A stretch of 40,045 nt of DNA from Bacilli bacterium. GTDB lineage: Bacteria; Bacillota_I; Bacilli_A; RF39; UBA660. The position numbers were made by a program, and so were the translations under genes. How positions within the stretch are numbered: position 1 is the stretch's first letter; each line of letters begins with the position of its first letter. Shown here one piece after another: positions 12,621 to 40,045 of this stretch. The notes under the pieces are model-generated. The model was not told the DNA's origin. It saw only the letters and a list, made by a program, of their open reading frames with translations, and ran no database searches. The DNA lies in NCBI GenBank assembly GCA_045638445.1, contig JAZUBJ010000106.1, forward strand, positions 1 to 40,045. The letters are read 5' to 3'.

Positions 12621-12770
12621 ATGATTTTACAAATTGAAATAAAAAAGGTGGAACGGCTGATAAATGAAAAAGGTTATATACCAGTATTAAATGGTAATAA
12701 AATAATATTATTAATAAATAAAATAACTGGTAAAACATATAAACCAAAAAAAGAATTAGGAATTGTTTAA
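12621..12770 (+). CDS. Small hypothetical protein (49 aa, MILQIEIKKVERL...)
   Basis: Not in the ORF track because it is under 60 aa. RBS AAGAGGGAGAG lies upstream and it is in an operon with the next gene. Confidence 0.4.
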   Translation: MILQIEIKKVERLINEKGYIPVLNGNKIILLINKITGKTYKPKKELGIV

Positions 12771-12779
12771 GGAGGAAAT

Positions 12780-18365: not shown

Positions 18366-18628
18366 AAGCAAAAGAAATGTTTGAAGAATTAGGGTATGAA
18401 CTTATTTCTGGAGATGATAATGAATTAATTAATTATAGAATTGATTTAGATTATACTTCTTTCATACAAGTGGTATTTAACAATAATACAAAAAGGTATT
18501 GGAGTGGAGAAACAAGAAAAACATATTTTGATGGTTATTTAAGAAAAGAAAATACACCAATTGGAATAGATTTGAATTTACAAAAAGCAATAAATAAACA
18601 AATAGAGGAATTGCACTGGAATGATTAG
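18362..18628 (+). CDS. Hypothetical protein (88 aa)
   Basis: Coupled ORF (ATGA overlap). Confidence 0.5.
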   Translation: MKAKEMFEELGYELISGDDNELINYRIDLDYTSFIQVVFNNNTKRYWSGETRKTYFDGYLRKENTPIGIDLNLQKAINKQIEELHWND

Positions 18629-19115
18629 ATGTTGGAAAGATATTAAAGGTTATGGAGGTAAATATAAAATATCTAATTATGGTGATGTTGTATCTCTTCC
18701 TAGGTTTAAACAAAATCATAGTAAATTACAAGAAGTTCCTATCAAAGTAATTAGTAAATATACAAATAAGAAAAATGGCTATGTATATGTTTATTTATGT
18801 AATGATGGGAAATACAAAAATATAAGACTTCATAAATTAGTTGCAGAAAATTTTATAGATAATCCAAATAACTATAAACAAATAAATCACAAAGATGGAA
18901 ATAAAAAAAATAATAGAGTTGATAACTTAGAATGGTGTAGTTGTTCTTACAATATTAAAGATATGTATAAAAGAAATGGGAAATATCAACAAGACAAGAA
19001 TATAATAAATGATTATTTAAAATTAAAATCTTGTAGAAAAGTTGCTAAAATTTACAATATGTCAAGTGAAAATATAAGATGTATTTTAAAGAGAAATAAT
19101 GTAGATAGAAGTTAG
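18621..19115 (+). CDS. HNH homing endonuclease (NUMOD4-like N-terminus, HNH_3 core, C-terminal HTH)
   Basis: WKDIKGYGGKYKISNYGDV motif, INHKDGNKKNNRVDNLEW HNH motif, and a C-terminal KVAKIYNMSSENIRCILKR helix-turn-helix. Confidence 0.8.
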   Translation: MIRCWKDIKGYGGKYKISNYGDVVSLPRFKQNHSKLQEVPIKVISKYTNKKNGYVYVYLCNDGKYKNIRLHKLVAENFIDNPNNYKQINHKDGNKKNNRVDNLEWCSCSYNIKDMYKRNGKYQQDKNIINDYLKLKSCRKVAKIYNMSSENIRCILKRNNVDRS

Positions 19116-19452: not shown

Positions 19453-19659
19453 ATGAATTTTAAAAAAGAAATTGAATGTTTTAATAAATTGTGCAAATAT
19501 CGTGTTAGGTGTAAATGTTCACATACTATTATTATGCCTAAATCCGATAGAGTAATTTGTTCTTATTGCAAAAAATGGATATATCGTACACCCGAAATAG
19601 AGTTTAAATATAAGTTGCAGGAAAAAATAAAAGAAATGGAAAAAGAAAAAAATGAATGA
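19453..19659 (+). CDS. Zinc-ribbon-like small protein
   Basis: Two Cys pairs (C-x-x-x-x-x-C-x-C ... C-x-x-C). The ATG at 19453 is preferred over the GTG at 19441. Confidence 0.5.
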   Translation: MNFKKEIECFNKLCKYRVRCKCSHTIIMPKSDRVICSYCKKWIYRTPEIEFKYKLQEKIKEMEKEKNE

Positions 19660-20209
19660 AACTATATTTTTAGAAAATAAAGCATTGATAAATTTTATTA
19701 TAAAAAAAATGAAACTTAATTACAATTTAGAAGAATGTTATATGGTTGGTGAAGAAGCCCTCATAAAAGCCACAAAAACATTTGATGAAACAAAAGGTTA
19801 TAAATTTAGCAGTTATGCAACCAAATATATTCAGTATGAGTTATCAAATTATTTGCAATATAAAAAATGTGGAAAAAGAAAATATGATGATTATTTGATT
19901 TCATTAAATGAAGAAATAGAAAATACAGACACAACATTACTTGAAATGATAGATAGTGGAATTAACCTAGAAGAAGATATTTTAAAACAAGAAAAAATAA
20001 AACTACTTAAAGATATAGTTTATATTTTAGAACCGCAAGATAAATTTATGTTAGAACATTATTTTGAACTTTGGGGGAATAAAAAAATGACTCAATTAGA
20101 AATTGCCAAAGTTTTAAATGTTAAACAAAATTATGTTTCTTTCAGAATAAAAAGGGCAATGAGAATAATTAAAAAGATAATGGAGGATAAGTATGGAAAA
20201 GAAAATTAA
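19652..20209 (+). CDS. Sigma-70 family RNA polymerase sigma factor (regions 2 and 4 only)
   Basis: Region 2: EEALIKATKTFDETKGYKFSSYATKYIQYELSNYL. Region 4 HTH: MTQLEIAKVLNVKQNYVSFRIKRAMRIIKK. Confidence 0.8.
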   Translation: MNETIFLENKALINFIIKKMKLNYNLEECYMVGEEALIKATKTFDETKGYKFSSYATKYIQYELSNYLQYKKCGKRKYDDYLISLNEEIENTDTTLLEMIDSGINLEEDILKQEKIKLLKDIVYILEPQDKFMLEHYFELWGNKKMTQLEIAKVLNVKQNYVSFRIKRAMRIIKKIMEDKYGKEN

Positions 20210-23310: not shown

Positions 23311-23320
23311 GTGGTATAAT
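23311..23320 (+). promoter_or_regulatory. GTGGTATAAT motif copy 3
   Basis: Exact 10-mer 7 nt after the methyltransferase stop. It is followed within 3 nt by a terminator hairpin, so promoter function here is doubtful. Confidence 0.3.
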
Positions 23321-23420: not shown

Positions 23421-23448
23421 TGTTTTTATATCACAATGTATCAATTTT

Positions 23449-23458
23449 GTGGTATAAT
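23449..23458 (+). promoter_or_regulatory. GTGGTATAAT motif copy 4; likely promoter of the packaging/head operon
   Basis: Extended -10 TGgTATAAT located 33 nt upstream of the first gene of the packaging block. Confidence 0.5.
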
Positions 23459-23490
23459 TATATTAGAAATAAAAAGGCAGGGTTGATATT

Positions 23491-23736
23491 ATGGAAATAT
23501 ACATTAATCCAAATTCAACATTTAGAGAAATAGTAGATAATATAGAGGCGATTAAATCCCACGTTAGGGATACTATCGGCTCTTTTTCTTCGTTTGAAAT
23601 GAAGCAACAACTTAAATTTAAACAAGAACTACGAAACCAAATATATGCTCTAAAATTTGAATTATGGAAAAAAGAAAGAATTTTGGAAACAATCTACGAT
23701 TACTTTCCGATTCACAAATTAAAAGGAATTAAATAA
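23491..23736 (+). CDS. Hypothetical protein (81 aa)
   Basis: First ORF after the promoter. No motif recognised. Confidence 0.5.
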   Translation: MEIYINPNSTFREIVDNIEAIKSHVRDTIGSFSSFEMKQQLKFKQELRNQIYALKFELWKKERILETIYDYFPIHKLKGIK

Positions 23737-28573: not shown

Positions 28574-29806
28574 GTGTTAGACGAAAGACTAATTGATTTA
28601 TTAGTAGAACGCCTTGTAGATAGAATAGAACAAGGCAACACTTATGTATTAGAACAAATAGGCAAGAATATCAAGAAAGTTGGTACTCTTACGCCTAGTA
28701 AGGCACAACAACTTGTAAATGTTCTTAAATATGGTGGTAATTATGATAATATTGTTAAAAAACTTGCGAAGGTTACCGACTTAAATGTCGCCGACATCTA
28801 TGAAATATTTGAAGAAGTTGCTAAGAATGATTATCAATTTGCTAAGCAGTTTTATGATTACAAAGGTGTTAAATACATTCCTTATGAAGAAAATTTTGCT
28901 TTACAAAGACAAGTTCAAGCGTTGGCAAGAATAACTGCAAATGAGTATGTTAATCTTAGTAATACACTTGCTTTCACAACACGAGATAAGTTCGGTAAGG
29001 TTGTTTATACTGACCTTTCTAGAACGTATCAAGATGTTATTGATAAGGCTGTTTTAAGCGTAGCACAAGGCAAAACTACATTTGATGAAGAAATGTATAA
29101 GAGTATCAAAGAACTTGCTTCTAGTGGCATAAAAACGGTTGATTATGCAAGTGGTAGAGCAGTTAGATTAGATTCAAGTGTTAGACAACATATGAAAGGT
29201 GCATTGAGAAACTTACACAATGAAACACAAGCAGTATTCGGTGAAGAATTTGGCTCTGATGGCGTAGAGATTAGTGTTCATATTAATCCAGCACCTGACC
29301 ACGCCGAAGTTCAAGGTAAACAATTTAGTAAAGAAGAATTTGTGAAGTTTCAAAATGACGATGATGCTTATGATTATAAAGGTAAGTTCTTTCCAGCAGT
29401 ATCAGAAGAAACTGGACACGATAGACGTTCTATAAGCGAACATAACTGTTATCATTACACTTTTGATATTGTGTTGGGTGTTAGTAAGCCAAATTATAGT
29501 AATGAAGAATTACAAAAGATAATTGATGATAATAACAAAGGTTTTGAATTAGATGGGAAGCACTATACTAATTATGAAGGCACTCAATTACAAAGAAAGC
29601 TAGAAACTGAAATTAGAAGGCAAAAAGATATTCAGATTATGGCGAAAGCAAGTGATAACAAAGAATTAGTGCAAGAAAGCCAACAAAAGATAACACAACT
29701 AACAAAGAAATATAAACAATTGAGTGACATTAGTGGTTTACCAACTAAAATGGAACGAATGCGTGTTAGTGGTTATCGCCGAGTTAATGTTGCAAAAATG
29801 AAATAG
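28574..29806 (+). CDS. Minor head protein (SPP1 gp7 / Mu F-like)
   Basis: 410 aa directly after the portal, GTG start with GGTAGGTGA RBS. Confidence 0.65.
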   Translation: MLDERLIDLLVERLVDRIEQGNTYVLEQIGKNIKKVGTLTPSKAQQLVNVLKYGGNYDNIVKKLAKVTDLNVADIYEIFEEVAKNDYQFAKQFYDYKGVKYIPYEENFALQRQVQALARITANEYVNLSNTLAFTTRDKFGKVVYTDLSRTYQDVIDKAVLSVAQGKTTFDEEMYKSIKELASSGIKTVDYASGRAVRLDSSVRQHMKGALRNLHNETQAVFGEEFGSDGVEISVHINPAPDHAEVQGKQFSKEEFVKFQNDDDAYDYKGKFFPAVSEETGHDRRSISEHNCYHYTFDIVLGVSKPNYSNEELQKIIDDNNKGFELDGKHYTNYEGTQLQRKLETEIRRQKDIQIMAKASDNKELVQESQQKITQLTKKYKQLSDISGLPTKMERMRVSGYRRVNVAKMK

Positions 29807-29808
29807 GT

Positions 29809-29818
29809 GTGGTATAAT
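29809..29818 (+). promoter_or_regulatory. GTGGTATAAT motif copy 5 (extended -10 promoter)
   Basis: Exact 10-mer 3 nt after the minor head protein stop codon. Confidence 0.45.
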
Positions 29819-29824
29819 TTAATT

Positions 29825-29974
29825 GTCACAGAGTAACTAGTTGTGGGCAAGAGTTAAATATAAAGTTGGCATTTTATAGAGTTCCCACTGTCAGACAGCC
29901 AGTCAAGTCATTATTAACGTGATATGATAAAGTCGAATGTGATATTTAGAAAAGAGAAATCTTTTCTTTTTTTT
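29825..29974 (+). ncRNA. Candidate small non-coding RNA (about 150 nt) bounded by a promoter and a terminator
   Basis: No ORF with an RBS. It is locally more GC-rich than its surroundings (gtggg...cccac, cagacagccagtc) and sits between TGgTATAAT and a hairpin plus T7. Confidence 0.3.
29948..29974 (+). terminator. Rho-independent terminator
   Basis: agaaaag-agaaat-cttttct hairpin followed by T7. The stem is AT-rich, so it is only moderately strong. Confidence 0.5.
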
Positions 29975-29975
29975 G

Positions 29976-30005
29976 TTGACAAATTGTATAAATGTTGTGT
30001 ATAAT
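29976..30005 (+). promoter_or_regulatory. Sigma-A type promoter (TTGACA-18-TATAAT)
   Basis: Consensus hexamers immediately after the terminator, driving the RHH operon. Confidence 0.6.
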
Positions 30006-30025
30006 ATGTGTAGTGAGGTGATAAA

Positions 30026-30160
30026 ATGGTAAAAGTTAGAAAAAATATAAGTATTGATGAAACAATATGGAAGAAACTTCAAGAACTTGCAAAGAAAGAA
30101 AACAGAAGTGCAAGTAATTTTATAGAATATTTAATAGAAAAATGGGAAAAGGGTGAATAG
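30026..30160 (+). CDS. Ribbon-helix-helix protein (44 aa)
   Basis: Not in the track. RBS GTGAGGTGA. ISIDETIWKKLQELAKKENRSASNFIEYLI fits the RHH pattern. Confidence 0.6.
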   Translation: MVKVRKNISIDETIWKKLQELAKKENRSASNFIEYLIEKWEKGE

Positions 30161-30161
30161 A

Positions 30162-30407
30162 ATGACAAGATTAGAACAAAGAAAGAATAGTGTTGAGAAA
30201 ACATTGAAAGATTTTAAAATACCTTATGAAACAATGTACGATAGAAGATATTTTAAAATAACATATCAAGGGCATAAGTTGTTATTAGAAGTAACAAATA
30301 GATATATTGATATTAGAAATAGAAAAGACACAATGAGTTATGGTTTTTTTGAAGGAGTAACTGATTTTAGATATTCTATTGAAAATGGTTATAGTTTAAT
30401 AGATTAA
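30162..30407 (+). CDS. Hypothetical protein (81 aa) coupled to the RHH gene
   Basis: The ATG at 30162 lies 1 nt after the RHH stop codon. The track models a GTG start at 30153. Confidence 0.5.
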   Translation: MTRLEQRKNSVEKTLKDFKIPYETMYDRRYFKITYQGHKLLLEVTNRYIDIRNRKDTMSYGFFEGVTDFRYSIENGYSLID

Positions 30408-30426
30408 AAGAAAGCGGTGAGTAATA

Positions 30427-30861
30427 ATGGAATTAAAAGAAGGAATGTATGTAAGAACTAAAAGAGGATTAATTGCCAAATATATAGGGTTTGAAAAAGA
30501 TGAAGAAGAAAATGAATATAGCAAGTATAATTTTAATGGAAAAATATATTGGTATTATGAATATTACAATGATTATGTTTATGAAGAAGATTTTGAAGAA
30601 TGGTTTGAAGCAAGTGTTATCAAAATAAGTAATAACATAATAGACTTAATAGAAGTTGGAGATATATTAGAAATTAATAATGAAAAATATGAAGTCATTT
30701 ATGATAAAAGTTATGAAAAATTAGGAATTTTAATACCTAGTAGAGAAGAATTATCAATAAGGCATAGTGCTTTAGAATATGTTTTTAAAAAATATAAGGT
30801 ATCAATAGTAACAAAAGAACAATTTTCACAAATGGAATATAAGATAAGTTTGGAGGGGTAA
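30427..30861 (+). CDS. Hypothetical protein (144 aa), Tyr/Glu-rich
   Basis: ORF with GGTGAG RBS. No motif recognised. Confidence 0.55.
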   Translation: MELKEGMYVRTKRGLIAKYIGFEKDEEENEYSKYNFNGKIYWYYEYYNDYVYEEDFEEWFEASVIKISNNIIDLIEVGDILEINNEKYEVIYDKSYEKLGILIPSREELSIRHSALEYVFKKYKVSIVTKEQFSQMEYKISLEG

Positions 30862-30862
30862 T

Positions 30863-31027
30863 GTGGAAATAGAAGATATAATTGAACAATTAGATAGAAT
30901 AGAAAGAATGTTGTTTACTTTATTAAATGAAACAGATAAAGAAAAGTTTAAAAATGAAAAAATAGAAAAATATAAAATTCAACTTAATTTATATGAAAAA
31001 ATGTTAAAACAAGAAGAAAATAAATAG
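30863..31027 (+). CDS. Small coiled-coil protein (54 aa, GTG start)
   Basis: Not in the track. The GGAGGGG RBS lies 4 nt upstream of the GTG. Confidence 0.35.
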   Translation: MEIEDIIEQLDRIERMLFTLLNETDKEKFKNEKIEKYKIQLNLYEKMLKQEENK

Positions 31028-31062
31028 AAAGGTTTGTGAGGTTATGAAAAATAATTTAGGAG

Positions 31063-31362
31063 ATGATGATTGTGAATGAAAAAATAGGAAGATATACAGA
31101 AGATGAAATATTAGAGCATTTAACCAAAGGAGAAGGTAGAGGATTTTTAGGAAGAAGTATGTACGATGCTATCTTCGATAAAATACACGCTTTAAAAACT
31201 GAAAATGAACAGACAAAAAAAGAAAATGCACGATTAAAAGATAAAAATAAAGATTTAGAAGAATGGTTAGAAGCAATGGCAAGTATGTATGAAAATGAAT
31301 ATAAAGATGTAGATGCTTCTGAACATTATAAATGTATGTTACATAAATTAAAAGAAAACTAG
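31063..31362 (+). CDS. Hypothetical coiled-coil protein (about 97 aa)
   Basis: ORF ending at a terminator. The start is ambiguous (ATG at 31063/31066 or GTG at 31072). Confidence 0.5.
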   Translation: MMIVNEKIGRYTEDEILEHLTKGEGRGFLGRSMYDAIFDKIHALKTENEQTKKENARLKDKNKDLEEWLEAMASMYENEYKDVDASEHYKCMLHKLKEN

Positions 31363-31386
31363 CAATTTGCCTAGTTTCTTTTTTTA
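31356..31386 (+). terminator. Rho-independent terminator
   Basis: aaactag / ctagttt stem overlapping the stop codon, followed by a T run. Confidence 0.55.
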
Positions 31387-31395
31387 TGTTATAAT
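31367..31395 (+). promoter_or_regulatory. Promoter (TTGCCT-17-TGtTATAAT) embedded in the terminator, same layout as at 8907
   Basis: The -35-like TTGCCT lies inside the hairpin. The extended -10 is at 31387-31395. Confidence 0.5.
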
Positions 31396-31436
31396 TTGGC
31401 TAGTAGTAAATGAGTGTCGTGCGGGGAGAATAAAAA

Positions 31437-31745
31437 ATGCTAGAGAAAATCGTATTAAGTGCTATTGGTGTAATAGTAACAAGTGTAGTAACGGGGCTTA
31501 TTGGTTATTTTAAAGGAAAAATGCAAGGTTATAAAAGTAGAGATAGTAGGCAAGAAGAAGCTCTTAAATGTCTTTTAAGAAGTAATATAACAAGCAAATA
31601 TTATGTTTATAGCGAATTAAAAGAGATACCATATTATGAAAAAGAAAATATTGACCGCATGTTTGAACAATATAAAAACATGGGTGGGAACTCTTATGTA
31701 GATACTATTGTTAGAGAAATAAACCAATTACCAACGAAAAAGTAG
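31437..31745 (+). CDS. N-terminally membrane-anchored protein (102 aa), monocistronic
   Basis: TM segment IVLSAIGVIVTSVVTGLIGYF followed by a soluble domain. It has its own promoter and terminator. Confidence 0.6.
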   Translation: MLEKIVLSAIGVIVTSVVTGLIGYFKGKMQGYKSRDSRQEEALKCLLRSNITSKYYVYSELKEIPYYEKENIDRMFEQYKNMGGNSYVDTIVREINQLPTKK

Positions 31746-31767
31746 TATTTATGTACTATTTTTTTAT
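31741..31767 (+). terminator. Weak rho-independent terminator
   Basis: agtagta / tactatt stem (one G-U pair) plus a T run. Confidence 0.4.
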
Positions 31768-31773
31768 TTTTAA

Positions 31774-31801
31774 TTGACTTTTGAGAAAATTTATATATAA
31801 T
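31774..31801 (+). promoter_or_regulatory. Sigma-A type promoter (TTGACT-16-TATAAT)
   Basis: Near-consensus hexamers upstream of the membrane protein leader. Confidence 0.55.
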
Positions 31802-31815
31802 AATAAGACAAAAGA

Positions 31816-31855
31816 AAAAAGGGAGTCCTAAGATGACTTCTTTTTTGTTTTTTTT
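31816..31855 (+). promoter_or_regulatory. Leader terminator/attenuator hairpin between the promoter and the membrane protein gene
   Basis: 12-bp stem (aaaaagggagtc / gacttctttttt, two G-U pairs) with a 7-nt loop, followed by G and T8. It lies downstream of the promoter and upstream of the start codon. Confidence 0.5.
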
Positions 31856-31880
31856 AGAGGGAGGTGAGAAAGGTGTTTAA
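31833..31880 (+). CDS. Leader mini-ORF (15 aa, MTSFLFFLEGGEKGV)
   Basis: GGGAG RBS 7 nt upstream. The ORF runs through the 3' arm and T run of the leader hairpin and overlaps the start of the main gene. Confidence 0.3.
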   Translation: MTSFLFFLEGGEKGV

Positions 31881-33066
31881 AGATTATAACAAGTATTTAA
31901 GTGCAAGTTTAAAAGTGTATATTTTTGTATTAGTAATAGTGTTTATAATGAAGTTGGTGGGGTTAGATTATTTTGGATTAGATGTAAACAATTCGATTTT
32001 TACCAAAGTTTTTACATTTTTAGCTAAATATAAAATCGATTATGTTTTACAAATATTATGTTTATATTTAAATTTTTATTTGTTAAAGAGCATAATATTT
32101 AAAGATTGCAAATTTGATTTTGAAACAATATTAATTCCAACGATAATTAACATTGGTACATACTTTTTACTTAAATATGACTTACAAGAGTTATATTCGA
32201 TGTTTAATATTTTAGTGTTGTTTTTATATTTTGTTATCAAAAAAGTTAAAATTAAAAGAATTTTAAAGGTTTTTATTATTAATATTGTCCTTCAATTTAT
32301 TAGTAGTGTTATTAGAAACTATGATATCAATAACTATATAACTTTGATTAATTTAATGATGAATATAGATTATTATATAATGCTAATTATTTGGTATAAA
32401 TTAGAAAAACAAGGAGGTGTTAAAAAATGGGAGAATGGCCAGGAAGTTTATTCTTATTCGCTAAAGAAGATAAACTTGGGGAAATTGCTGAAAAGATTGC
32501 AAGAAAACTTGCATAAATTTAAGCAAAAACAAAAAGTTGAAAAATTAACAATTATTATTTATTTGTTTTTAAGTTTGATATGGAATACATTTACAGTAAT
32601 TTTTGTTCTTTTTGTAGCATCATTAAATGACACATTTATTGAATGTATATTCATAATAACTTCATTCTGGTTATCCAAAAGAGCATTTGGTAAGGCATTT
32701 CATCTATCTAGTATGATCCAATGTTTTATTGTTTCAAATATTAGTTATTATATACTAAATAGAATTACAACACCTTTAGGAATTAGTATATTAATTCCAA
32801 TAATGTTAGGAGTAGGTTTATCGTATGTTACATCAAAATTGGTGAAGAAAACATACAAGCCACTTTATAAAGGTATGTCAAAGGAACTATTTGAAGAAAC
32901 AATATTAAAGGTTGTGGACAAAGATAGCCAGAAGTATAAGATATGTTACGACTTTTATATTAATAAGAAAAGTGATTTATCACTATCTTTGAAATATAAT
33001 TATTCAGTCGCAGGTATTAGAAAAATTAAGGATAGAATAAATGATAAAATTAAAAGACTTGATTAA
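31864..33066 (+). CDS. Polytopic membrane protein (about 400 aa) with an AgrB-like His/Cys motif in its C-terminal half
   Basis: About 10 hydrophobic segments. WLSKRAFGKAFHLSSMIQCFIVS reproduces the R-x6-H-x6-C-x3-S spacing of AgrB (S. aureus RRHAHGAHAPSSFWCYVES). The probable start is the GTG at 31873. Confidence 0.45.
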   Translation: MRKVFKDYNKYLSASLKVYIFVLVIVFIMKLVGLDYFGLDVNNSIFTKVFTFLAKYKIDYVLQILCLYLNFYLLKSIIFKDCKFDFETILIPTIINIGTYFLLKYDLQELYSMFNILVLFLYFVIKKVKIKRILKVFIINIVLQFISSVIRNYDINNYITLINLMMNIDYYIMLIIWYKLEKQGGVKKWENGQEVYSYSLKKINLGKLLKRLQENLHKFKQKQKVEKLTIIIYLFLSLIWNTFTVIFVLFVASLNDTFIECIFIITSFWLSKRAFGKAFHLSSMIQCFIVSNISYYILNRITTPLGISILIPIMLGVGLSYVTSKLVKKTYKPLYKGMSKELFEETILKVVDKDSQKYKICYDFYINKKSDLSLSLKYNYSVAGIRKIKDRINDKIKRLD

Positions 33067-33079
33067 AGTCTTTTTTTTT
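33052..33079 (+). terminator. Rho-independent terminator
   Basis: aaaagact / agtctttt 8-bp stem with the stop codon in the loop, followed by a T run. Confidence 0.65.
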
Positions 33080-33122
33080 GTATTATTTTGTATCGTTTTT
33101 AAAATCTATAATTAAGTTAGAA

Positions 33123-33171
33123 AGGAGATGCAAACAATGAAAAATAAAACCCTGCTGATGTTTGCTCTCCT
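33123..33171 (+). promoter_or_regulatory. RBS-sequestering hairpin in the leader of the 33198 operon
   Basis: 13 bp with one bulge: aggagatgcaaaca pairs with tgtttgctctcct. The left arm contains the AGGAG of the mini-ORF. Confidence 0.4.
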
Positions 33172-33184
33172 TTTGTTTATTTAA
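33137..33184 (+). CDS. Mini-ORF (15 aa, MKNKTLLMFALLLFI)
   Basis: AGGAGA RBS 9 nt upstream. Its stop codon overlaps the RBS of the next gene. Confidence 0.3.
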   Translation: MKNKTLLMFALLLFI

Positions 33185-33197
33185 GGAGATGAAATAA

Positions 33198-33635
33198 ATG
33201 TATAATAACCCATATTATAACCCAAATCAAAGGTATCAACCGATGGGAATGCCAAGTCAACCCATGACAACACAACCTAGTTATATAACACCAATAACAC
33301 CGCCTATAAGTCAACCAAATTTATTAGGTAAGGTAGTGGATAGTATTGATGTAGTAAAAGCTATGGACATTCCTTTAGATGGCAGTATAAGTTATTTCCC
33401 ACTAACAGATGGAACTGCAATTGTTAGTAAGCAGTTACAAACAGACGGAACTAGTAAAACTGTTATTTACAAACCAATAAAAGAAGATACTAACGATAAT
33501 AACAAATTCGTGACTTTTGAAGATATGCAAAAAGAACTTGCAAAAATAGATTTATCTGATTTAGATGATTTGAAAGATGAATTAAAGGAAATTAAAAAGC
33601 AATTGAAAACAATAAAAAAACCGAAGGAGGATTAA
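33198..33635 (+). CDS. Protein with a P/Q/N/Y-rich low-complexity N-terminus (145 aa)
   Basis: MYNNPYYNPNQRYQPMGMPSQPMTTQPSYITPITPPISQP, then a globular part and a charged coiled-coil tail. Confidence 0.6.
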   Translation: MYNNPYYNPNQRYQPMGMPSQPMTTQPSYITPITPPISQPNLLGKVVDSIDVVKAMDIPLDGSISYFPLTDGTAIVSKQLQTDGTSKTVIYKPIKEDTNDNNKFVTFEDMQKELAKIDLSDLDDLKDELKEIKKQLKTIKKPKED

Positions 33636-33636
33636 A

Positions 33637-33876
33637 ATGAATAATCCGTTGCAAATGATTAAAATGATGATGAGCAACACCAAAAATCCACAAGAAATAG
33701 CTATGAATATGATAGGTAATAATAATAATCCAGTTATACAAAACCTCGTCAAAATGGCTCAAAATGGTGACTATAAAGGTGTAGAAAATGTTGCTAGAAA
33801 TATGTTTAAAGAACAAGGTAGAGATTTTGATGCAGAATTGAAAGATTTACAAAGTTTTATAGGTAATTTTAAATAA
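33637..33876 (+). CDS. Small Met/Asn-rich helical protein (79 aa)
   Basis: Coupled ORF (TAAAATG junction). No motif recognised. Confidence 0.6.
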   Translation: MNNPLQMIKMMMSNTKNPQEIAMNMIGNNNNPVIQNLVKMAQNGDYKGVENVARNMFKEQGRDFDAELKDLQSFIGNFK

Positions 33877-33882
33877 GAATAA

Positions 33883-33927
33883 AAAGTCCGGTTATAAGTG
33901 TAAAACGTCCGGACAGAACCGGACTTT
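33883..33927 (+). promoter_or_regulatory. GC-rich three-element hairpin with mutually exclusive pairings
   Basis: aaagtccggtt (A) and aaccggacttt (C) form a perfect 11-bp stem. The loop contains the palindrome gtccggac (B), which can pair with either A or C. Confidence 0.5.
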
Positions 33928-33951
33928 CTATTATAAATTAAAAAAGGAGGA

Positions 33952-34827
33952 ATGAAAATGGAAGGAATGTTAAGCCCTGCTGATGTAGCTGTCCTATCTG
34001 GAAATGCTGGTGGAAATAGACAAGGTGGACAAGGTGGTTTCGGAGACGGATATGGTGCATGGTGGATCATCATCTTAATAGTATTATTAGGATGGGGTAG
34101 AAACGGCTTCGGTGGAAACCAAGGAGGAAACTCTGATGGTGGACAAGGAGCAACATATTACTATGGAGGAGGTTTTGGTATGCCAAATATCTATGGTAAG
34201 TTAGACGGAATTAGTTATGGTATAGCAGATTCTACTTTCGCTTTAAACAATTCAATTACAAATGGATTTGCTGGTGTTCAACAAACATTATGTCAAGGAT
34301 TTAGTGGTGTAAATAATGCTATAACAGTTAATGGCTATGAAACAAGAAGTGCTGTTACTGATTTAGGTTACAGACTACAAGATTGTTGCTGTCAAACACA
34401 AAGAGCAATTGATAAATGTTGCTGTGATACTTTAAGAAGTATTGACAATGTAAGATTTGAAAACGCTCAAAATACTTGTGCTTTAACAAATGTTATAAAT
34501 AGCACTACAAGAGATATTTTAGAAAGCAATAACAATAATACAAGGGCAATTTTAGATTTCTTAACTAAAGATAAAATTGATACTTTACAAGCAGAAAATC
34601 AAGCTCTTAGATTCCAAGCTTCACAAACTGCTCAAAATGCTTTCATTACTGCTAACCAAGACGCTCAAACTGCTGAGTTAATCAGAAGATTAGGAGCAGA
34701 TTGCCCACAACCTGCTTACCTTGTAAATGGACCTACACCAATTAGTTTCCCAACTAATGGATGTGGACAAGTTCAGTTTTCAAACAATGGTTGCGGATGC
34801 GGATGCAATAATGGATATAATTTTTAA
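33952..34827 (+). CDS. Gly-rich, membrane-anchored, Cys-rich protein with CCC repeats (291 aa)
   Basis: Gly/Gln/Asn-rich N-terminus flanking the TM segment AWWIIILIVLLGW. Tandem DCCCQTQRAID / KCCCDTLRSID, a Gln-rich coiled coil, and C-terminal GCGCGCNNGYNF. 13 Cys in total. Confidence 0.7.
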   Translation: MKMEGMLSPADVAVLSGNAGGNRQGGQGGFGDGYGAWWIIILIVLLGWGRNGFGGNQGGNSDGGQGATYYYGGGFGMPNIYGKLDGISYGIADSTFALNNSITNGFAGVQQTLCQGFSGVNNAITVNGYETRSAVTDLGYRLQDCCCQTQRAIDKCCCDTLRSIDNVRFENAQNTCALTNVINSTTRDILESNNNNTRAILDFLTKDKIDTLQAENQALRFQASQTAQNAFITANQDAQTAELIRRLGADCPQPAYLVNGPTPISFPTNGCGQVQFSNNGCGCGCNNGYNF

Positions 34828-34880
34828 TAAGTGAGATGTCTAACTGACAACCCTGATAACAGGGACTTGCTAATTTAACG

Positions 34881-34914
34881 GAGGTATAGCAAGTCTATAC
34901 CTCTTTATTTATTT
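34881..34914 (+). terminator. Rho-independent terminator
   Basis: gaggtata / tatacctc 8-bp stem with a 7-nt loop and a T-rich tail. A second small hairpin ccctg-ataa-caggg lies at 34851-34864. Confidence 0.65.
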
Positions 34915-34934
34915 AAGAAAGGAATGATAATTAA

Positions 34935-35393
34935 ATGATTCAAAGTGTATTAGAACAATTTACAATTCTTACTAGTAATACATCTGCTATTAATTTTACT
35001 CAAGATGATGTAAGAAGTAGAAAAGCTAATTGTTGCGGATGGTTACAACATAACGAAGGTTCACCAATTTATAAAATATTAGAAGGTGGATTATATGAAG
35101 TTTCTTTTAATGCCAATGTTTCAAGTGCTACTGCTGGAGTAGTTGCTTTAGGTTTATACCAAGATGGTGTGTTAATACCCGGAACAACTGTTATAACTAC
35201 AATAGCAACTGCTGGTGATTTTATGAATGTATCTTTTGATAAATTAATACAAGTATGTTGTAGAGGAGATGCTAATTTAACTATAGCATCAGTACCTAGT
35301 GTTTTAACAGGAACAACTGCACCGGGAACTCCAACAGATACAGAAATTCCTATAATTCAAAATGCTAACTTCTCAATAATTAAGAAATCGTAG
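34935..35393 (+). CDS. C1q/TNF-like (BclA C-terminal domain-like) beta-sandwich protein with two vicinal Cys pairs
   Basis: 152 aa. The pattern GGLYEVSFNANVSSATAGVVALGLYQDGVLIPGT ... NLTIASV ... NANFSIIK resembles BclA-C/C1q jelly-roll domains. Confidence 0.45.
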   Translation: MIQSVLEQFTILTSNTSAINFTQDDVRSRKANCCGWLQHNEGSPIYKILEGGLYEVSFNANVSSATAGVVALGLYQDGVLIPGTTVITTIATAGDFMNVSFDKLIQVCCRGDANLTIASVPSVLTGTTAPGTPTDTEIPIIQNANFSIIKKS

Positions 35394-35402
35394 GTGTGAA
35401 TT

Positions 35403-35960
35403 ATGGAAGAAGAAAAAAAAGATAAGGAAATATTAGAAAAGTTAAAAGAAGAAACTGACAAATCTATGAAACGTGTTTTGGAACAAGGAGTACAAACAAA
35501 CAATGTTGATTTTCTTTATAAAATGATAGATATAAAGAAAGATATAGCAGAAATTGAAAAGGAGGAAGAAGATATGATGTATAGAGCAGGAGGTTCATAC
35601 AGAGAAGGTGGTTCAGGTCGTGGCTCTTATGGTGAATACGGAGAAGGTTCTTACGGAAGAAGAGGAGTACCCGGAAGTGGTAGAGGAAGATACAGCGAAG
35701 GCGGTTCTTATGGACGTAGAGGTGTAAAAGGAACTGGTAGAGGTCGTTATCGTGGAGAAGAAATGATGGACGAAATGGCTTATCACTATGGAAATTACTC
35801 TGAAAGTGGACAATATGGAGCTGAAGGAGAATCAATGGAAGCTCTAAGCAACTTAATGGAAAGTGCATACGAGTATTTTAAGGAATTAAAAGAAAATGCT
35901 AATTCACCAGAAGAAATTAAAATGATGGAACACTATTTTAAAAAAATGGGCGAAATGTAA
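35403..35960 (+). CDS. RGG/GSY-repeat protein flanked by acidic helical domains (185 aa)
   Basis: The central region GGSYREGGSGRGSYGEYGEGSYGRRGVPGSGRGRYSEGGSYGRRGVKGTGRGRYRGEE includes a 19-aa tandem duplication. Confidence 0.6.
   Translation: MEEEKKDKEILEKLKEETDKSMKRVLEQGVQTNNVDFLYKMIDIKKDIAEIEKEEEDMMYRAGGSYREGGSGRGSYGEYGEGSYGRRGVPGSGRGRYSEGGSYGRRGVKGTGRGRYRGEEMMDEMAYHYGNYSESGQYGAEGESMEALSNLMESAYEYFKELKENANSPEEIKMMEHYFKKMGEM
35646..35759 (+). repeat. 2 x 57-nt in-frame tandem repeat encoding GSYGRRGV(P/K)G(S/T)GRGRY...
   Basis: Units at 35646-35702 and 35703-35759. The Arg codons differ between units (AGA vs CGT), so the repeat is conserved mainly at the protein level. Confidence 0.8.
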
Positions 35961-36316
35961 TGTATAAATTCTATAATGCAAATGCTCGTGGTAAATTCCA
36001 CAATGATTGCACAGTCAGGGCAATTTCACTAGCCGAAGGTAAATCGTGGGATGATACTTATAGAGAATTAAGCATAATAGCACAACGTAATGGAATAATA
36101 CTTGACGATGTTAATTTTATCGAGCCATTATTAGATAGTAGGTATGATAGAATATGCTATAAAGGAAAATATGTGGGCGAGTTCGCAGAAGAACACCCAG
36201 AGGGAACGTACCTTATAACGATGAACGGGCATATTACTTGTTGTATTGATGGGACGATATACGATACATTTGATTGTAGAAACAGAGAAATGTGGTGTGC
36301 TTGGGAGGTTTATTAA
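35960..36316 (+). CDS. Small Cys-His protein, possible papain-fold peptidase/amidase (118 aa)
   Basis: An N-terminal NDCTVRAISLA (candidate nucleophile Cys) and a C-terminal NGHITCCIDGTIYDTFD (candidate His/Asp) have the order and spacing of small papain-like enzymes. Confidence 0.35.
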   Translation: MYKFYNANARGKFHNDCTVRAISLAEGKSWDDTYRELSIIAQRNGIILDDVNFIEPLLDSRYDRICYKGKYVGEFAEEHPEGTYLITMNGHITCCIDGTIYDTFDCRNREMWCAWEVY

Positions 36317-36327
36317 CCTCTCTTAAC

Positions 36328-36402
36328 GGGAGTATAGCCAAGTGGATAAGGCAAGTGACTGCAACTCACTTATCGTAGGTTCAAATCCTATTACTCCCTC
36401 CA
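36328..36402 (+). tRNA. tRNA-Cys(GCA): tRNA-Cys (anticodon GCA) with encoded CCA
   Basis: Manual cloverleaf: 7-bp acceptor gggagta/tactccc, D loop with GG, anticodon stem agtga/tcact with loop CTGCAAC, and T arm gtagg-TTCAAAT-cctat. The U73 discriminator is the CysRS identity element, and a 3' CCA is encoded. Confidence 0.85.
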
Positions 36403-36455
36403 ATTTTGATTTTTATAAAATATATGATATAATTTTCTAAGAGAGGATTGATTAT

Positions 36456-36779
36456 ATGAAGAATTATAAAGTTACTGCAATAATAAATTTCACATATACT
36501 GCTTTTGATGAAGTTGTATTTATAGAAAAAGAAAAATATAATTACCATTGGATCTATAAAGGTGATGTTTTCTTATGTGATAAAGACCAATATGAATATT
36601 TAAGTGGAAATAATAAAAAGAAATTAGTTACGATTAAATTAGATGGAATATTGGTTGAAGAAGAACAACAAGAAGTTGTAATTGACCAATCAAATGAAAT
36701 TGATGTAGAAATAAATAAAGAAGATTTAGAAGTTAAACCTAAAAAGAAAAGAGCAACTAAAAAATCAAGCAAGGAATAA
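36456..36779 (+). CDS. Hypothetical protein with a Lys-rich tail (107 aa)
   Basis: ORF with GAGAGGA RBS, flanked by the tRNA and the tRNA-like element. Confidence 0.55.
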   Translation: MKNYKVTAIINFTYTAFDEVVFIEKEKYNYHWIYKGDVFLCDKDQYEYLSGNNKKKLVTIKLDGILVEEEQQEVVIDQSNEIDVEINKEDLEVKPKKKRATKKSSKE

Positions 36780-36792
36780 CTTGCTTTTACTT

Positions 36793-36866
36793 AGGGATAA
36801 GGCGAAAGTTGCCGACAAATCTCCAAAATTTGTGTCGAGTGGGAGCGTTACCTACTATCCCTGCCA
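36793..36866 (+). tRNA. tRNA-like cloverleaf, possibly a degenerate or non-canonical tRNA-Trp (anticodon CCA)
   Basis: 7-bp acceptor agggata/tatccct, G73 and a 3' CCA; anticodon stem caaat/atttg with loop CTCCAAA; T stem gtggg/cctac. However, the T loop is AGCGTTA rather than TTCRANN, the D loop is only 5 nt with no GG, and the spacer lengths are irregular. Confidence 0.4.
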
Positions 36867-36887
36867 TTAGTAAATAAAAAGTGCTTT

Positions 36888-36915
36888 TTGCATTTTTTTT
36901 ATTTTGTGTTATAAT
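36888..36915 (+). promoter_or_regulatory. Promoter of the scaffold/capsid operon (TTGCAT-16-TGtTATAAT)
   Basis: Good -35 and an extended -10, located 85 nt upstream of the scaffold start. Confidence 0.55.
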
Positions 36916-36923
36916 ATATTTAT

Positions 36924-36941
36924 AAAGTTCAACAGAACTTT
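36924..36941 (+). promoter_or_regulatory. Inverted repeat AAAGTTC-N4-GAACTTT just downstream of the -10 (operator or 5' UTR hairpin)
   Basis: Perfect 7-bp arms with a 4-nt spacer, starting 9 nt after TATAAT. Confidence 0.35.
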
Positions 36942-36999
36942 CAATATTGATTCACTCGAGTTCGTGGCTCGTAAAATTAACGATAGGAGGAGATATTAA

Positions 37000-37476
37000 A
37001 TGAGAGAATTTTTAAAGAGTTTAGAATTAGAAAAAGAAACTATTGATGTTATTATGAAAGAACATGGAAAAATTTTAACTGAAAACAAAGGTGAAATACA
37101 AGGTTTGAAAGATAAAATTAAAGAACATGAAGAAACAATAACAAAATTAAATGGTACTATTGAAGATAATAATAAATCTTTAGAAAGTCTACAAACACTA
37201 ACAAACGAGAATAAAGACTTAAAAGCAGAAATTCAAATGAATGGAAGCAATGTTAAAAAAGAATTTAGTAAATTTGTTAGAAGCGAAGTTATGGCAAATG
37301 TAAATGATGAAACAGATTTTACAACAGCCCTTGAAACTTACAAAAAAGATAATCCACAATACTTTGGAGATGTAGTAGTTAAAAAAGTGCAATCATCACC
37401 AAGTTTAAACGGTGGAGAACCACAACCACAAACAACAAATAATATTATGAATGATATTATTCGTGGTACAAAATAA
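37000..37476 (+). CDS. Capsid scaffolding protein (GP20-like coiled coil)
   Basis: 158 aa, highly charged coiled coil, directly upstream of the major capsid gene, with a strong AGGAGGAG RBS. Confidence 0.75.
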   Translation: MREFLKSLELEKETIDVIMKEHGKILTENKGEIQGLKDKIKEHEETITKLNGTIEDNNKSLESLQTLTNENKDLKAEIQMNGSNVKKEFSKFVRSEVMANVNDETDFTTALETYKKDNPQYFGDVVVKKVQSSPSLNGGEPQPQTTNNIMNDIIRGTK

Positions 37477-39525: not shown

Positions 39526-39956
39526 TGAATTATAATGAGGCTAGAATATCAAAGTTAAGAACTTATTTGTTTAGTATAATTGACACTCTTGCTACTGATA
39601 AGAACTATCAAATTAATGCTAATATGTTATCTAACGATATTAATAATTATTCGCTTGATAAGATACCAACATCAAGTCAAGTCGAAAGATGGGTAACAGG
39701 TTTAGAAATACATCGTGACGTATTTTCGTTTAGAAGTAGAAACGCTTACTCACAAGATGTAATCAATAATCTTTCTAATATAGGGTTCTTTGAGAAATTT
39801 GAAAGCATAATAAAATCTAATAACAAGAAAGGCGTTTTGCCTGATATTGAAGGTATAGAAAGTATTGAGTGTTTAAATTCCGGAGCGATGTTGAGTAGTG
39901 ATACTAACACCGCTGAGTTTGATATTCAAATACAAATAACATATAGAGAGGAGTAA
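39525..39956 (+). CDS. Tail completion / tail terminator-like protein
   Basis: 143 aa, the last gene before the tail tube gene once the circle is closed. Confidence 0.5.
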   Translation: MNYNEARISKLRTYLFSIIDTLATDKNYQINANMLSNDINNYSLDKIPTSSQVERWVTGLEIHRDVFSFRSRNAYSQDVINNLSNIGFFEKFESIIKSNNKKGVLPDIEGIESIECLNSGAMLSSDTNTAEFDIQIQITYREE

Positions 39957-40045
39957 CCCACATGAAGAAACTGGAGGCTAAAAAGGATTTTACTTTAGAC
40001 GGAGTTGATTATATAGTTGACGATGAAGTTAAAGTTACCGACATA
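39905..40045. repeat. Terminal direct repeat copy 2 (identical to 1-141)
   Basis: Base-for-base identity with the window start. Confidence 0.95.

Follow-up and report, generated by a model that had tools for sequence, protein, structure and literature searches.

What does a membrane protein with the catalytic His/Cys spacing of AgrB do in a phage genome that carries no other recognisable agr gene? This question is raised by gene X, an open reading frame (ORF) in a 40,045-nt contig from a Bacilli bacterium (JAZUBJ010000106.1, assembly GCA_045638445.1), the whole of which was analysed and is called the window hereafter. Staphylococcus aureus AgrB is a membrane cysteine peptidase (H77/C84) that cleaves and cyclises AgrD, whose C-terminal tail is thereby freed into the cytoplasm; to our knowledge, AgrB is known only as a dedicated maturation enzyme of autoinducing peptides (AIPs). 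A first-pass annotation, made from the sequence alone, had described X as an orphan, extended enzyme of this type. In the family of X, which has members in host agr loci as well as in a widespread gut phage family, the AgrB catalytic core is joined directly to a DNA-binding domain. Because half an AgrB is here joined to a helix-turn-helix (HTH) and host copies lie inside agr loci, an ordinary AgrB enzyme is a less likely reading of X than a gene switch anchored in the membrane and connected with peptide signalling.

Domain architecture of gene X

The ORF of the first-pass annotation (31864..33066, + strand) is present in the window. Its true start is almost certainly the GTG at 31873, which gives a protein of 397 amino acids, because a ribosome-binding site (RBS, GGAGGTG) lies 6 nt 5' of it, the homologs all open with MFKDY and the database copy is 397 amino acids long. 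Residues are numbered on this form (adding 3 converts to the previous 400-residue numbering). The protein is composed of an N-terminal polytopic domain (residues 1 to ~190), an AgrB-like half domain (~200-325) with H277 and C284, and a C-terminal HTH resembling sigma-70 region 4 (~333-397), an architecture that is regarded as shown. Ten transmembrane (TM) helices are predicted from the models, followed by a Lys-rich linker and the HTH, and a topology with both termini in the cytoplasm fits the model helices and the Lys/Arg distribution (positive-inside rule). The extra N-terminal domain noticed at first pass was confirmed, with ~190 residues and six AlphaFold2 helices (5-29, 55-76, 83-101, 105-122, 127-148 and 157-179), while helices 7-10 are homologous to AgrB helices 1-4.

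The likeness to AgrB was supported by the Pfam check that the first-pass annotation had proposed: AgrB (PF04647) matches X with E=6.7e-9 and 35.8 bits for a curated cut-off of 23. The match spans residues 209-318 (400-residue numbering), i.e. model positions 5-108 of 185; positions 109-185 are unmatched, and helix 4 is followed by the linker and the HTH. Homologs of X score 21-42 bits, distant short homologs matching independently with up to 42. Most family members carry a precomputed PF04647 assignment, and annotation pipelines already label members "accessory gene regulator B family protein", so that the bare AgrB similarity is not new; behind this label there is another architecture and, probably, another function.

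SKRAFGKAFHLSSMIQCFIVS was found as described at first pass, the motif running K269-R270-A-F-G-K-A-F-H277-L-S-S-M-I-Q-C284-F-I-V-S288 and containing R-x6-H-x6-C-x3-S (R270/H277/C284/S288). H277 and C284 are invariant in 121/121 close homologs and in a 69-sequence alignment, and they are the only invariant columns of a 20-sequence alignment at 18-42% identity. Conservation is ~95% among distant representatives (50%-identity clusters), in which H is kept in 82/87 and C in 84/87, and one or both residues are lost in P0172, P0177, P0191, P0240 and P0265. The position of S288 is S or T in most sequences. R270, at -7 from His, is variable (R in 77/121 close homologs, K, H or G in the others), the conserved basic residue being K269 (K or R) at -8. 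A Gly is conserved in the family at -4 from His; the S. aureus G75 is at -2.

For comparison with canonical AgrB, a profile was built by collecting and aligning relatives of the annotated AgrB of Clostridium phage phiCDHM1. Alignment of residues 200-330 of X to this profile with hhalign gave E=9e-5, a probability of 59% and 87 aligned columns; in this run, as in that with the whole family alignment (see below), H277 fell on H75, C284 on C82 and R270 on R68. The second half of canonical AgrB has invariant P126, N131 and K143, for which X has no counterpart. X resembles AgrB in the first four TM helices, in the basic-x-F-G-x-x-F-H-x6-C motif and in the dyad at the cytoplasmic membrane face, and differs from it by the absence of helices 5-6 and their conserved residues, by ~190 extra N-terminal residues, by the C-terminal HTH and by the lack of an adjacent agrD. 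The predicted topology puts the dyad, as had been anticipated, where a TM helix (helix 9) meets the cytoplasm: H277 falls in a cytoplasmic turn, and C284 in the first turn of the helix that follows. The arrangement described for S. aureus AgrB is the same, R70, G75 and H77 being assigned to the cytoplasmic turn that precedes helix 3 and C84 to a site just within the membrane, and the K129-131 loop is required for AIP formation and dispensable for cleavage (PMC10196373). No AgrB structure was found in the PDB by sequence search, and according to the same article (PMC10196373) there is none; with Foldseek, the membrane part of X matched nothing in the PDB, the HTH alone being matched.

This HTH, formed by the last ~65 residues and overlooked in the first-pass annotation, has a predicted fold of the sigma-70 region-4/KorA type. 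In an AlphaFold2 model of full-length X, the predicted local distance difference test score (pLDDT) was 85-90 for residues 333-397, the AgrB-like part being of low confidence; a second model, of residues 200-397 with a diverse alignment, had a mean pLDDT of 90.8, with 92-98 across residues 333-397, and shows four C-terminal helices. Foldseek matches of the C-terminus in the PDB were KorA-operator DNA complexes, SigD4, SigC, sigmaE region 4 and SigF (probability 0.9-1.0, TM-score on target 0.5-0.8, root-mean-square deviation 2.2-3.3 A over 57-65 residues). In BFVD, a 429-residue family member labelled "Accessory gene regulator B" ranked first, ahead of sigma factors, DUF1492 proteins and region-4 proteins. 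When 31 C-terminal domains were combined into a profile and compared to PDB chains, SigF, GerE, UPF0122, sigma factors and KorA were obtained as weak matches (E 3e-3 to 0.3). Among homologs, Pfam Sigma70_r4 matched P0237 (E=2.7e-5, 24.0 bits for a cut-off of 24.1) and P0261, and Sigma70_r4_2 matched P0240, at or just below the cut-offs; DUF1492 was matched as well. The linker before the HTH carries a conserved motif, K-P-L-Y-[KR]-G-M.

A search of 1.84 billion cluster representatives returned only 175 relatives. These include short forms (~185-215 amino acids, aligning to residues ~220-396 of X) made of about four TM helices with H-x6-C and a soluble tail of the type RGMSxxEL...YYCxR...IAxKYNYSxxxIYKxKxKxLxKI. 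Searches of X against PHROG and NCBIfam gave nothing useful, and GenBank phages gave no match by DNA search or tblastn. For the N-terminal domain, the Pfam scan was without hit, and hhalign showed no kinship to the AgrB-like half, to canonical AgrB or to two AgrC sensor domains. In the phage contigs with short X (L057 and L060), the gene directly 5' encodes a membrane protein of 194-198 amino acids: that of L060 matches the N-terminal domain (BLASTP, 30% identity, E=1e-6), and that of L057, which gave no BLASTP match to this domain, is of equal size, occupies the corresponding position and has a similar N-terminus. Since an N-domain gene stands alone upstream of short X, long X would seem to have arisen by fusion of two adjacent genes, whose products presumably act together. 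The region equivalent to long X (L057, 5311-6570; L060, 4856-6124) is split into three ORFs, encoding the N-domain protein (194-198 amino acids), a Lys-rich product of 47-50 amino acids that matches the cytoplasmic linker helix of X, and the AgrB-like-HTH protein (189-193 amino acids).

Chromosomal homologs and a conserved repeat

The absence of AgrD, AgrC and AgrA reported at first pass was verified over the window: in a Pfam scan, none of its 42 ORFs had a HATPase, LytTR or Response_reg domain, and no AgrD-like peptide turned up when all small ORFs were scanned with a regular expression. Chromosomal homologs of X, which are 50-62% identical to it, have such neighbours. One of them, P0059 (62% identical; locus L053), belongs to a Bacilli metagenome-assembled genome (MAG), in which its chromosomal contig of 137.7 kb also carries dxs, prfA, prmC, spoIIR, ctpB, asnB and ftsK. 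It is flanked by a Response_reg+LytTR regulator and a HATPase_c_5 kinase, and the opposite strand encodes a canonical AgrB of 200 amino acids and a 40-amino-acid ORF with typical AgrD features (MKLVAKVLAVIGAVAATVGTTGCSFLICDEPKMPKSLLNK). As L053 has its own canonical AgrB and AgrD, the X homolog is therefore not the AgrD processor there. Such a full agr locus around an X homolog was found once. At six other MAG loci, X has a tagO/wecA-like gene on one side and a short AgrC-like kinase directly 3', and at one further chromosomal locus a LytTR-like regulator is 3' of X. Judging from the place of these homologs among agr-type chromosomal loci, the X family is a host gene tied to agr-type two-component systems, of which the phage has a full-length copy without them.

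At L053, the AgrD tail (12650-12772, - strand) reads ...CDEPKMPKSLLNK and the X tether ...YKGMPKEVFEN, for a family consensus YRGMPKELFEE (X residues 328-345). This short likeness (MPKxL/V) could be due to chance, or be a hint that the tether mimics the AgrD tail.

X is followed by a promoter-like element, a TGTAT-N5-TGTAT repeat upstream of a -10 hexamer (coordinates of this and other features are given in Table 1). Within 80 nt 3' of the X stop codon, the repeat is found in 27/33 distinct loci with at most one mismatch and is exact in 18 (background per 80 nt: 0.008 and 0.0005, respectively), and a TAnnnT hexamer is located exactly 13 nt 3' of it in 26/36 loci, phage and chromosomal. The element is present whether the next gene belongs to the phage module described below or encodes a kinase or a response regulator. 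In the window it has no usable -35 box at 17 bp and its TGTAT copies are one helical turn apart; it resembles an activator-dependent promoter with a binding site over the -35 region. The same repeat is found within the coding sequence of X, where Val15 is encoded by GTG in 28/30 genes, as compared to 10% at the other Val codons of these genes; this synonymous constraint has a binomial P of 4e-26, calculated on sequences that are not independent.

The repeat also varies with the recognition helix of X. The second repeat is TAGTATC at loci with an ILKV helix, TGTCT or TGTAC where the helix reads ITSR, and TTGTATC where it reads IKDR. The diverged short forms of X have other direct repeats of 10-bp period (TACTATTTAT twice or ATACTTAATT twice) before the -10 hexamer. 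These patterns, which are correlative and confounded by shared ancestry, point to the HTH of X as the predicted binding protein.

Function of X and competing explanations

In our judgement, X is probably a regulator of transcription that is anchored in the membrane and has an AgrB-derived module as its base. Its HTH would bind the TGTAT repeats and, from a -35-proximal site, activate transcription of the genes downstream, which would be the Cys-rich six-gene module in the phage and the AgrC-like kinase or LytTR regulator in host chromosomes; the repeat copy in the 5' coding region of X would provide autoregulation. More speculatively, the AgrB-like dyad might govern the activity of the regulator, either by cutting the K-P-L-Y-[KR]-G-M tether of X itself, which would free the HTH, or by binding or processing an AgrD-type peptide, and in both cases the phage would couple its repeat promoter to host agr-type peptide signalling. 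The dyad could thus serve in self-release, in peptide processing or in peptide sensing. If X acts as such a regulator, an undescribed component would be added to the agr-type quorum sensing of uncultured gut Bacillota, and X would be a concrete, testable case of a phage borrowing an agr component, with the matched operator supplied.

Several observations weigh against this proposal. X of the window itself yields no Pfam HTH match, and the HTH assignment rests on homologs, on the predicted fold and on weak profile matches (E ~1e-3). The hhalign comparison of the whole X family alignment with AgrB gave E=0.003 and a probability of only 10%. An AgrB truncated of helices 5-6 may be non-catalytic, in which case the dyad could have been retained to bind a ligand or a metal. 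The six-gene module is also found in phages without X (Dulem virus 35, Clostridium perfringens and Butyrivibrio phages, in which it lies between the minor and major capsid genes), and so has no strict need of X. Over the whole window, TGTAT-N5-TGTAT occurs at chance level (11 found, 10 expected); the element is distinctive by its position and not by its abundance. The conservation counts were drawn from related sequences, and the P values overstate their independence. Finally, another factor could recognise the repeat, for example the small phage sigma factor encoded at 19652-20209, and a similar repeat of 10-bp period (TATATCAcaaTGTATCAattttgTGGTATAAT, 23427-23459) adjoins an extended -10 hexamer elsewhere in the window. 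This sigma factor has Sigma70_r2 and r4 matches just below the Pfam cut-offs. The repeat at 23427-23459 is upstream of an operon which starts at 23491 and encodes a UPF0122-like HTH protein, a metallophosphatase and then the terminase, and a second TGTGGTATAAT is present at 23311.

A more elaborate scheme, tentative and to which we give a limited chance, would make X a single-polypeptide switch. The AgrB half would recognise an AgrD-type tail (its own tether or a host propeptide), the dyad would cut, and the freed HTH would drive the TGTAT promoters, the phage thereby following or hijacking host quorum sensing. The host would use X within the agr circuit to control agrC or agrA-type genes, and the captured X would drive the Cys-rich module and possibly host agr genes with the same operator. 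This would amount to a new mechanism of agr signal transduction and to a new form of phage eavesdropping in Gram-positive gut bacteria.

The plain orphan AgrB enzyme of the first-pass annotation is weakened because half of the domain is missing, an HTH is present in its place, L053 has an AgrB and AgrD of its own and no AgrD-like gene lies nearby. This view, in which X would be a working AgrB-type peptidase/cyclase acting on a peptide encoded elsewhere (host AgrD or a module protein) and the C-terminal domain would be accessory, seems unlikely to us. A PF04647 score above threshold, a dyad conserved at the right topological position and homologs in or beside agr-type loci all agree with such an enzyme, as does the tight synteny of X and the Cys-rich module in distant phages, including four with the module inverted. 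Yet only one half of the AgrB domain is there, the invariant P/N/K positions of the C-terminal half being absent, and the missing half includes the K129-131 loop that S. aureus AgrB needs for AIP formation (PMC10196373). Moreover, the window contains no AgrD-like ORF (a 15-residue mini-ORF 3' of X is a non-conserved part of a hairpin), the L053 homolog is accompanied by canonical AgrB and AgrD, and the HTH and its accompanying cis element would be left unexplained.

It is similarly improbable that X is a tethered regulator with a non-catalytic AgrB-like sensor, which would bind an AgrD-type propeptide, its tail or an AIP and alter the HTH without proteolysis. The near-absolute conservation of His and Cys over 18-80% identity is more typical of catalysis; members that have lost one or both residues show that the scaffold can persist without the full dyad, but they are rare. 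The architecture and the cis-element evidence speak for this sensor as much as for the membrane-anchored regulator that we prefer, X is associated with agr loci equipped with an AgrB of their own, and the part of AgrB tied to AIP formation is absent from X.

Lastly, similarities to AgrB and HTH without functional meaning, in a generic phage membrane protein (superinfection exclusion, lysis accessory) whose repeat would be an ordinary promoter or terminator part, would agree with the lack of PHROG, NCBIfam or PADLOC matches, with the low confidence of the first AlphaFold2 run in the AgrB-like part and with the possibility of spurious profile matches from a TM-rich sequence, but are very improbable given that several family members independently pass the AgrB threshold with the dyad aligned, that the second model has a pLDDT of 90.8, that chromosomal homologs are embedded in agr-type loci, and that the repeat and its spacing are kept across very different contexts, with the in-gene copy synonymously constrained.

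The membrane-anchored regulator proposed here can be compared with several known systems. The membrane-bound one-component regulators ToxR, CadC, TcpP and, in Gram-positives, BcrR have an N-terminal HTH of the winged-helix or XRE type and a periplasmic or few-TM sensor; X is alike in holding a cytoplasmic DNA-binding domain at the membrane, presumably to act on a nearby promoter, and differs in that its HTH is C-terminal, of sigma-region-4 type and associated with a peptidase-derived four-TM module. In pro-sigmaE/SpoIIGA, pro-sigmaK/SpoIVFB and RsiW/sigmaW, a membrane protease, of the aspartic or metalloprotease kind, activates a sigma module that is otherwise kept inactive at the membrane. 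X likewise brings together a sigma-related module for binding DNA or RNA polymerase and a protease-like module at the membrane (cleavage being hypothetical for X), but as one polypeptide, with region 4 only and a Cys/His AgrB-like protease fold. Small phage activators of late genes, of the RinA/ArpU/DUF1492 type with a sigma-region-4-like HTH, are soluble proteins of ~100-150 amino acids, usually encoded upstream of terminase genes; they share with X the C-terminal DUF1492/Sigma70_r4 matches (Pfam, fold) and the predicted action at a promoter devoid of a -35 box, whereas X is a ten-TM membrane protein beside a module that looks non-essential.

Two phages offer precedents of another kind. The phage phiCDHM1 (HG531805, AgrB = gp36) carries agrD, agrB and agrC together (PMC3901668), of which none is found as such in the phage of the window. 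VqmA-Phi of vibriophage VP882 is a soluble small-molecule receptor that controls lysis (reviewed in PMC7790227). Like VqmA-Phi, X is a phage copy of a host signalling component and could read or distort host cell-cell signalling; unlike it, X is membrane-embedded and of the Gram-positive peptide (agr) kind. Full-text literature searching gave no description of an AgrB-HTH fusion, of its operator or of its joint occurrence in phages and host agr loci.

Phage genome, leaders and the six-gene module

Table 1. Location of gene X and of the features surrounding it in the window
Feature	Coordinates	Strand	Remarks
Sigma-70-type promoter-like site	31774..31801	+	TTGACT-16-TATAAT; 11/12 consensus matches
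Leader hairpin and T-run, terminator-like	31816..31855	+	12-pair stem, then GTTTTTTTT; between promoter and RBS of X
Gene X	31873..33066	+	397-aa protein; three parts
TGTAT-N5-TGTAT inside X coding sequence	31916..31930	+	Codons 15-20; exact match; kept in all loci examined
H277-to-C284 codons, AgrB-type catalytic dyad	32701..32724	+	Conservation; aligned to H75/C82 of canonical AgrB
Intrinsic-terminator-like hairpin over X stop codon	33052..33079	+	AAAAGACT/AGTCTTTT and T-run, read from sequence
Promoter-like element	33079..33112	+	TGTAT-N5-TGTAT 33079-33093, 13-nt spacer, TATAAT 33107-33112
Long leader hairpin and T-rich tail	33121..33182	+	AAAGGAGATGCAAACA / TGTTTGCTCTCCTTTT; holds 15-aa mini-ORF 33137-33184
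Six-gene module 3' of X	33198..36316	+	145, 79, 291, 152, 185, 118 aa
tRNA-Cys (GCA)	36328..36402	+	Directly 3' of Cys-rich module; only tRNA in genome

The window is a siphovirus genome of 39,904 bp with a 141-bp exact direct terminal repeat (1-141 and 39905-40045), and is therefore considered as complete, circularly closed or terminally redundant. Its ORFs encode a terminase, an SPP1-type portal, minor capsid protein 2, a scaffold, a capsid and a Phage_Gp15 tail-associated protein, as well as a holin, an M23 peptidase, a DnaB helicase, a C5 methylase and the sigma factor; of the + strand ORFs of at least 70 amino acids, none was recognised as an integrase. X has the minor capsid gene on one side and the scaffold/capsid genes on the other.

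Upstream of X, a TTGACA-type promoter is found in chromosomal homolog loci at the position equivalent to that of the promoter-like site in Table 1. A hairpin with a T-run stands at the equivalent place 5' of X in the chromosomal loci L053, L005, L008-L012 and L015-L017, with differing sequence. This order of promoter, hairpin/T-run and RBS, which always precedes X and is kept in position and not in sequence, suggests conditional termination in the X leader. Downstream, the "agtcttttttt" feature is likewise found 3' of the X stop codon in related loci.

A hairpin in the leader of the module is predicted in nearly all phage loci, with differing stem sequences, and could be a small RNA, an attenuator or a target of anti-termination. 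The 5' arm of the hairpin is AGGAG-rich, and the loops of several of the L001-L049 loci have TTTGTTTAAAACGCATT in common. A search against Rfam over 29800-37000 found the tRNA alone, the hairpins matching no family. The mini-ORF 3' of X was considered as a possible AgrD and rejected: it lies inside this conserved hairpin and is missing in L007, L020, L023, L024, L036 and L041, which retain the hairpin. About nine loci have mini-ORFs of 15-26 amino acids with an RBS-like sequence, and in some of these ORFs a Cys stands six residues before the end. The "RBS" is the 5' arm of the hairpin, and the "LLLFI" end is encoded by its T-rich tail.

The products of the six-gene module are a Q/N/P-rich protein (145 amino acids), a protein of 79 amino acids, a Gly/Cys-rich protein with one TM helix and CCCxxxxxxxxCCC (291), a protein with a weak BclA_C-like (TNF-like) match (152), an RGG/SYG low-complexity protein (185) and a Cys/His-rich protein (118). 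The module matches PHROGs 21718, 18666, 16490, 20016 and 28802, all without assigned function, and with PADLOC neither X nor the module matched any defence system. The arrangement of X and the six genes recurs in most of 51 related loci, four of which have the module inverted relative to X; phages with short X also carry it, sited after the lysis genes. The MAG labels of phage-like contigs (Muribaculaceae, Elusimicrobiota, Clostridium) were not used as host assignments.

CCC/CC clusters are present in two of the module products (33952-34827 and 34935-35393). As host MAGs hold sporulation genes (spoIIR, ctpB, spoIID-like), a link of the module to the spore surface is conceivable. A gene resembling NUMOD4/HNH homing endonucleases is located at 18621-19115, and copies of it occur near the X module in L014, L019, L028, L031 and L050, where they vary in position and orientation.

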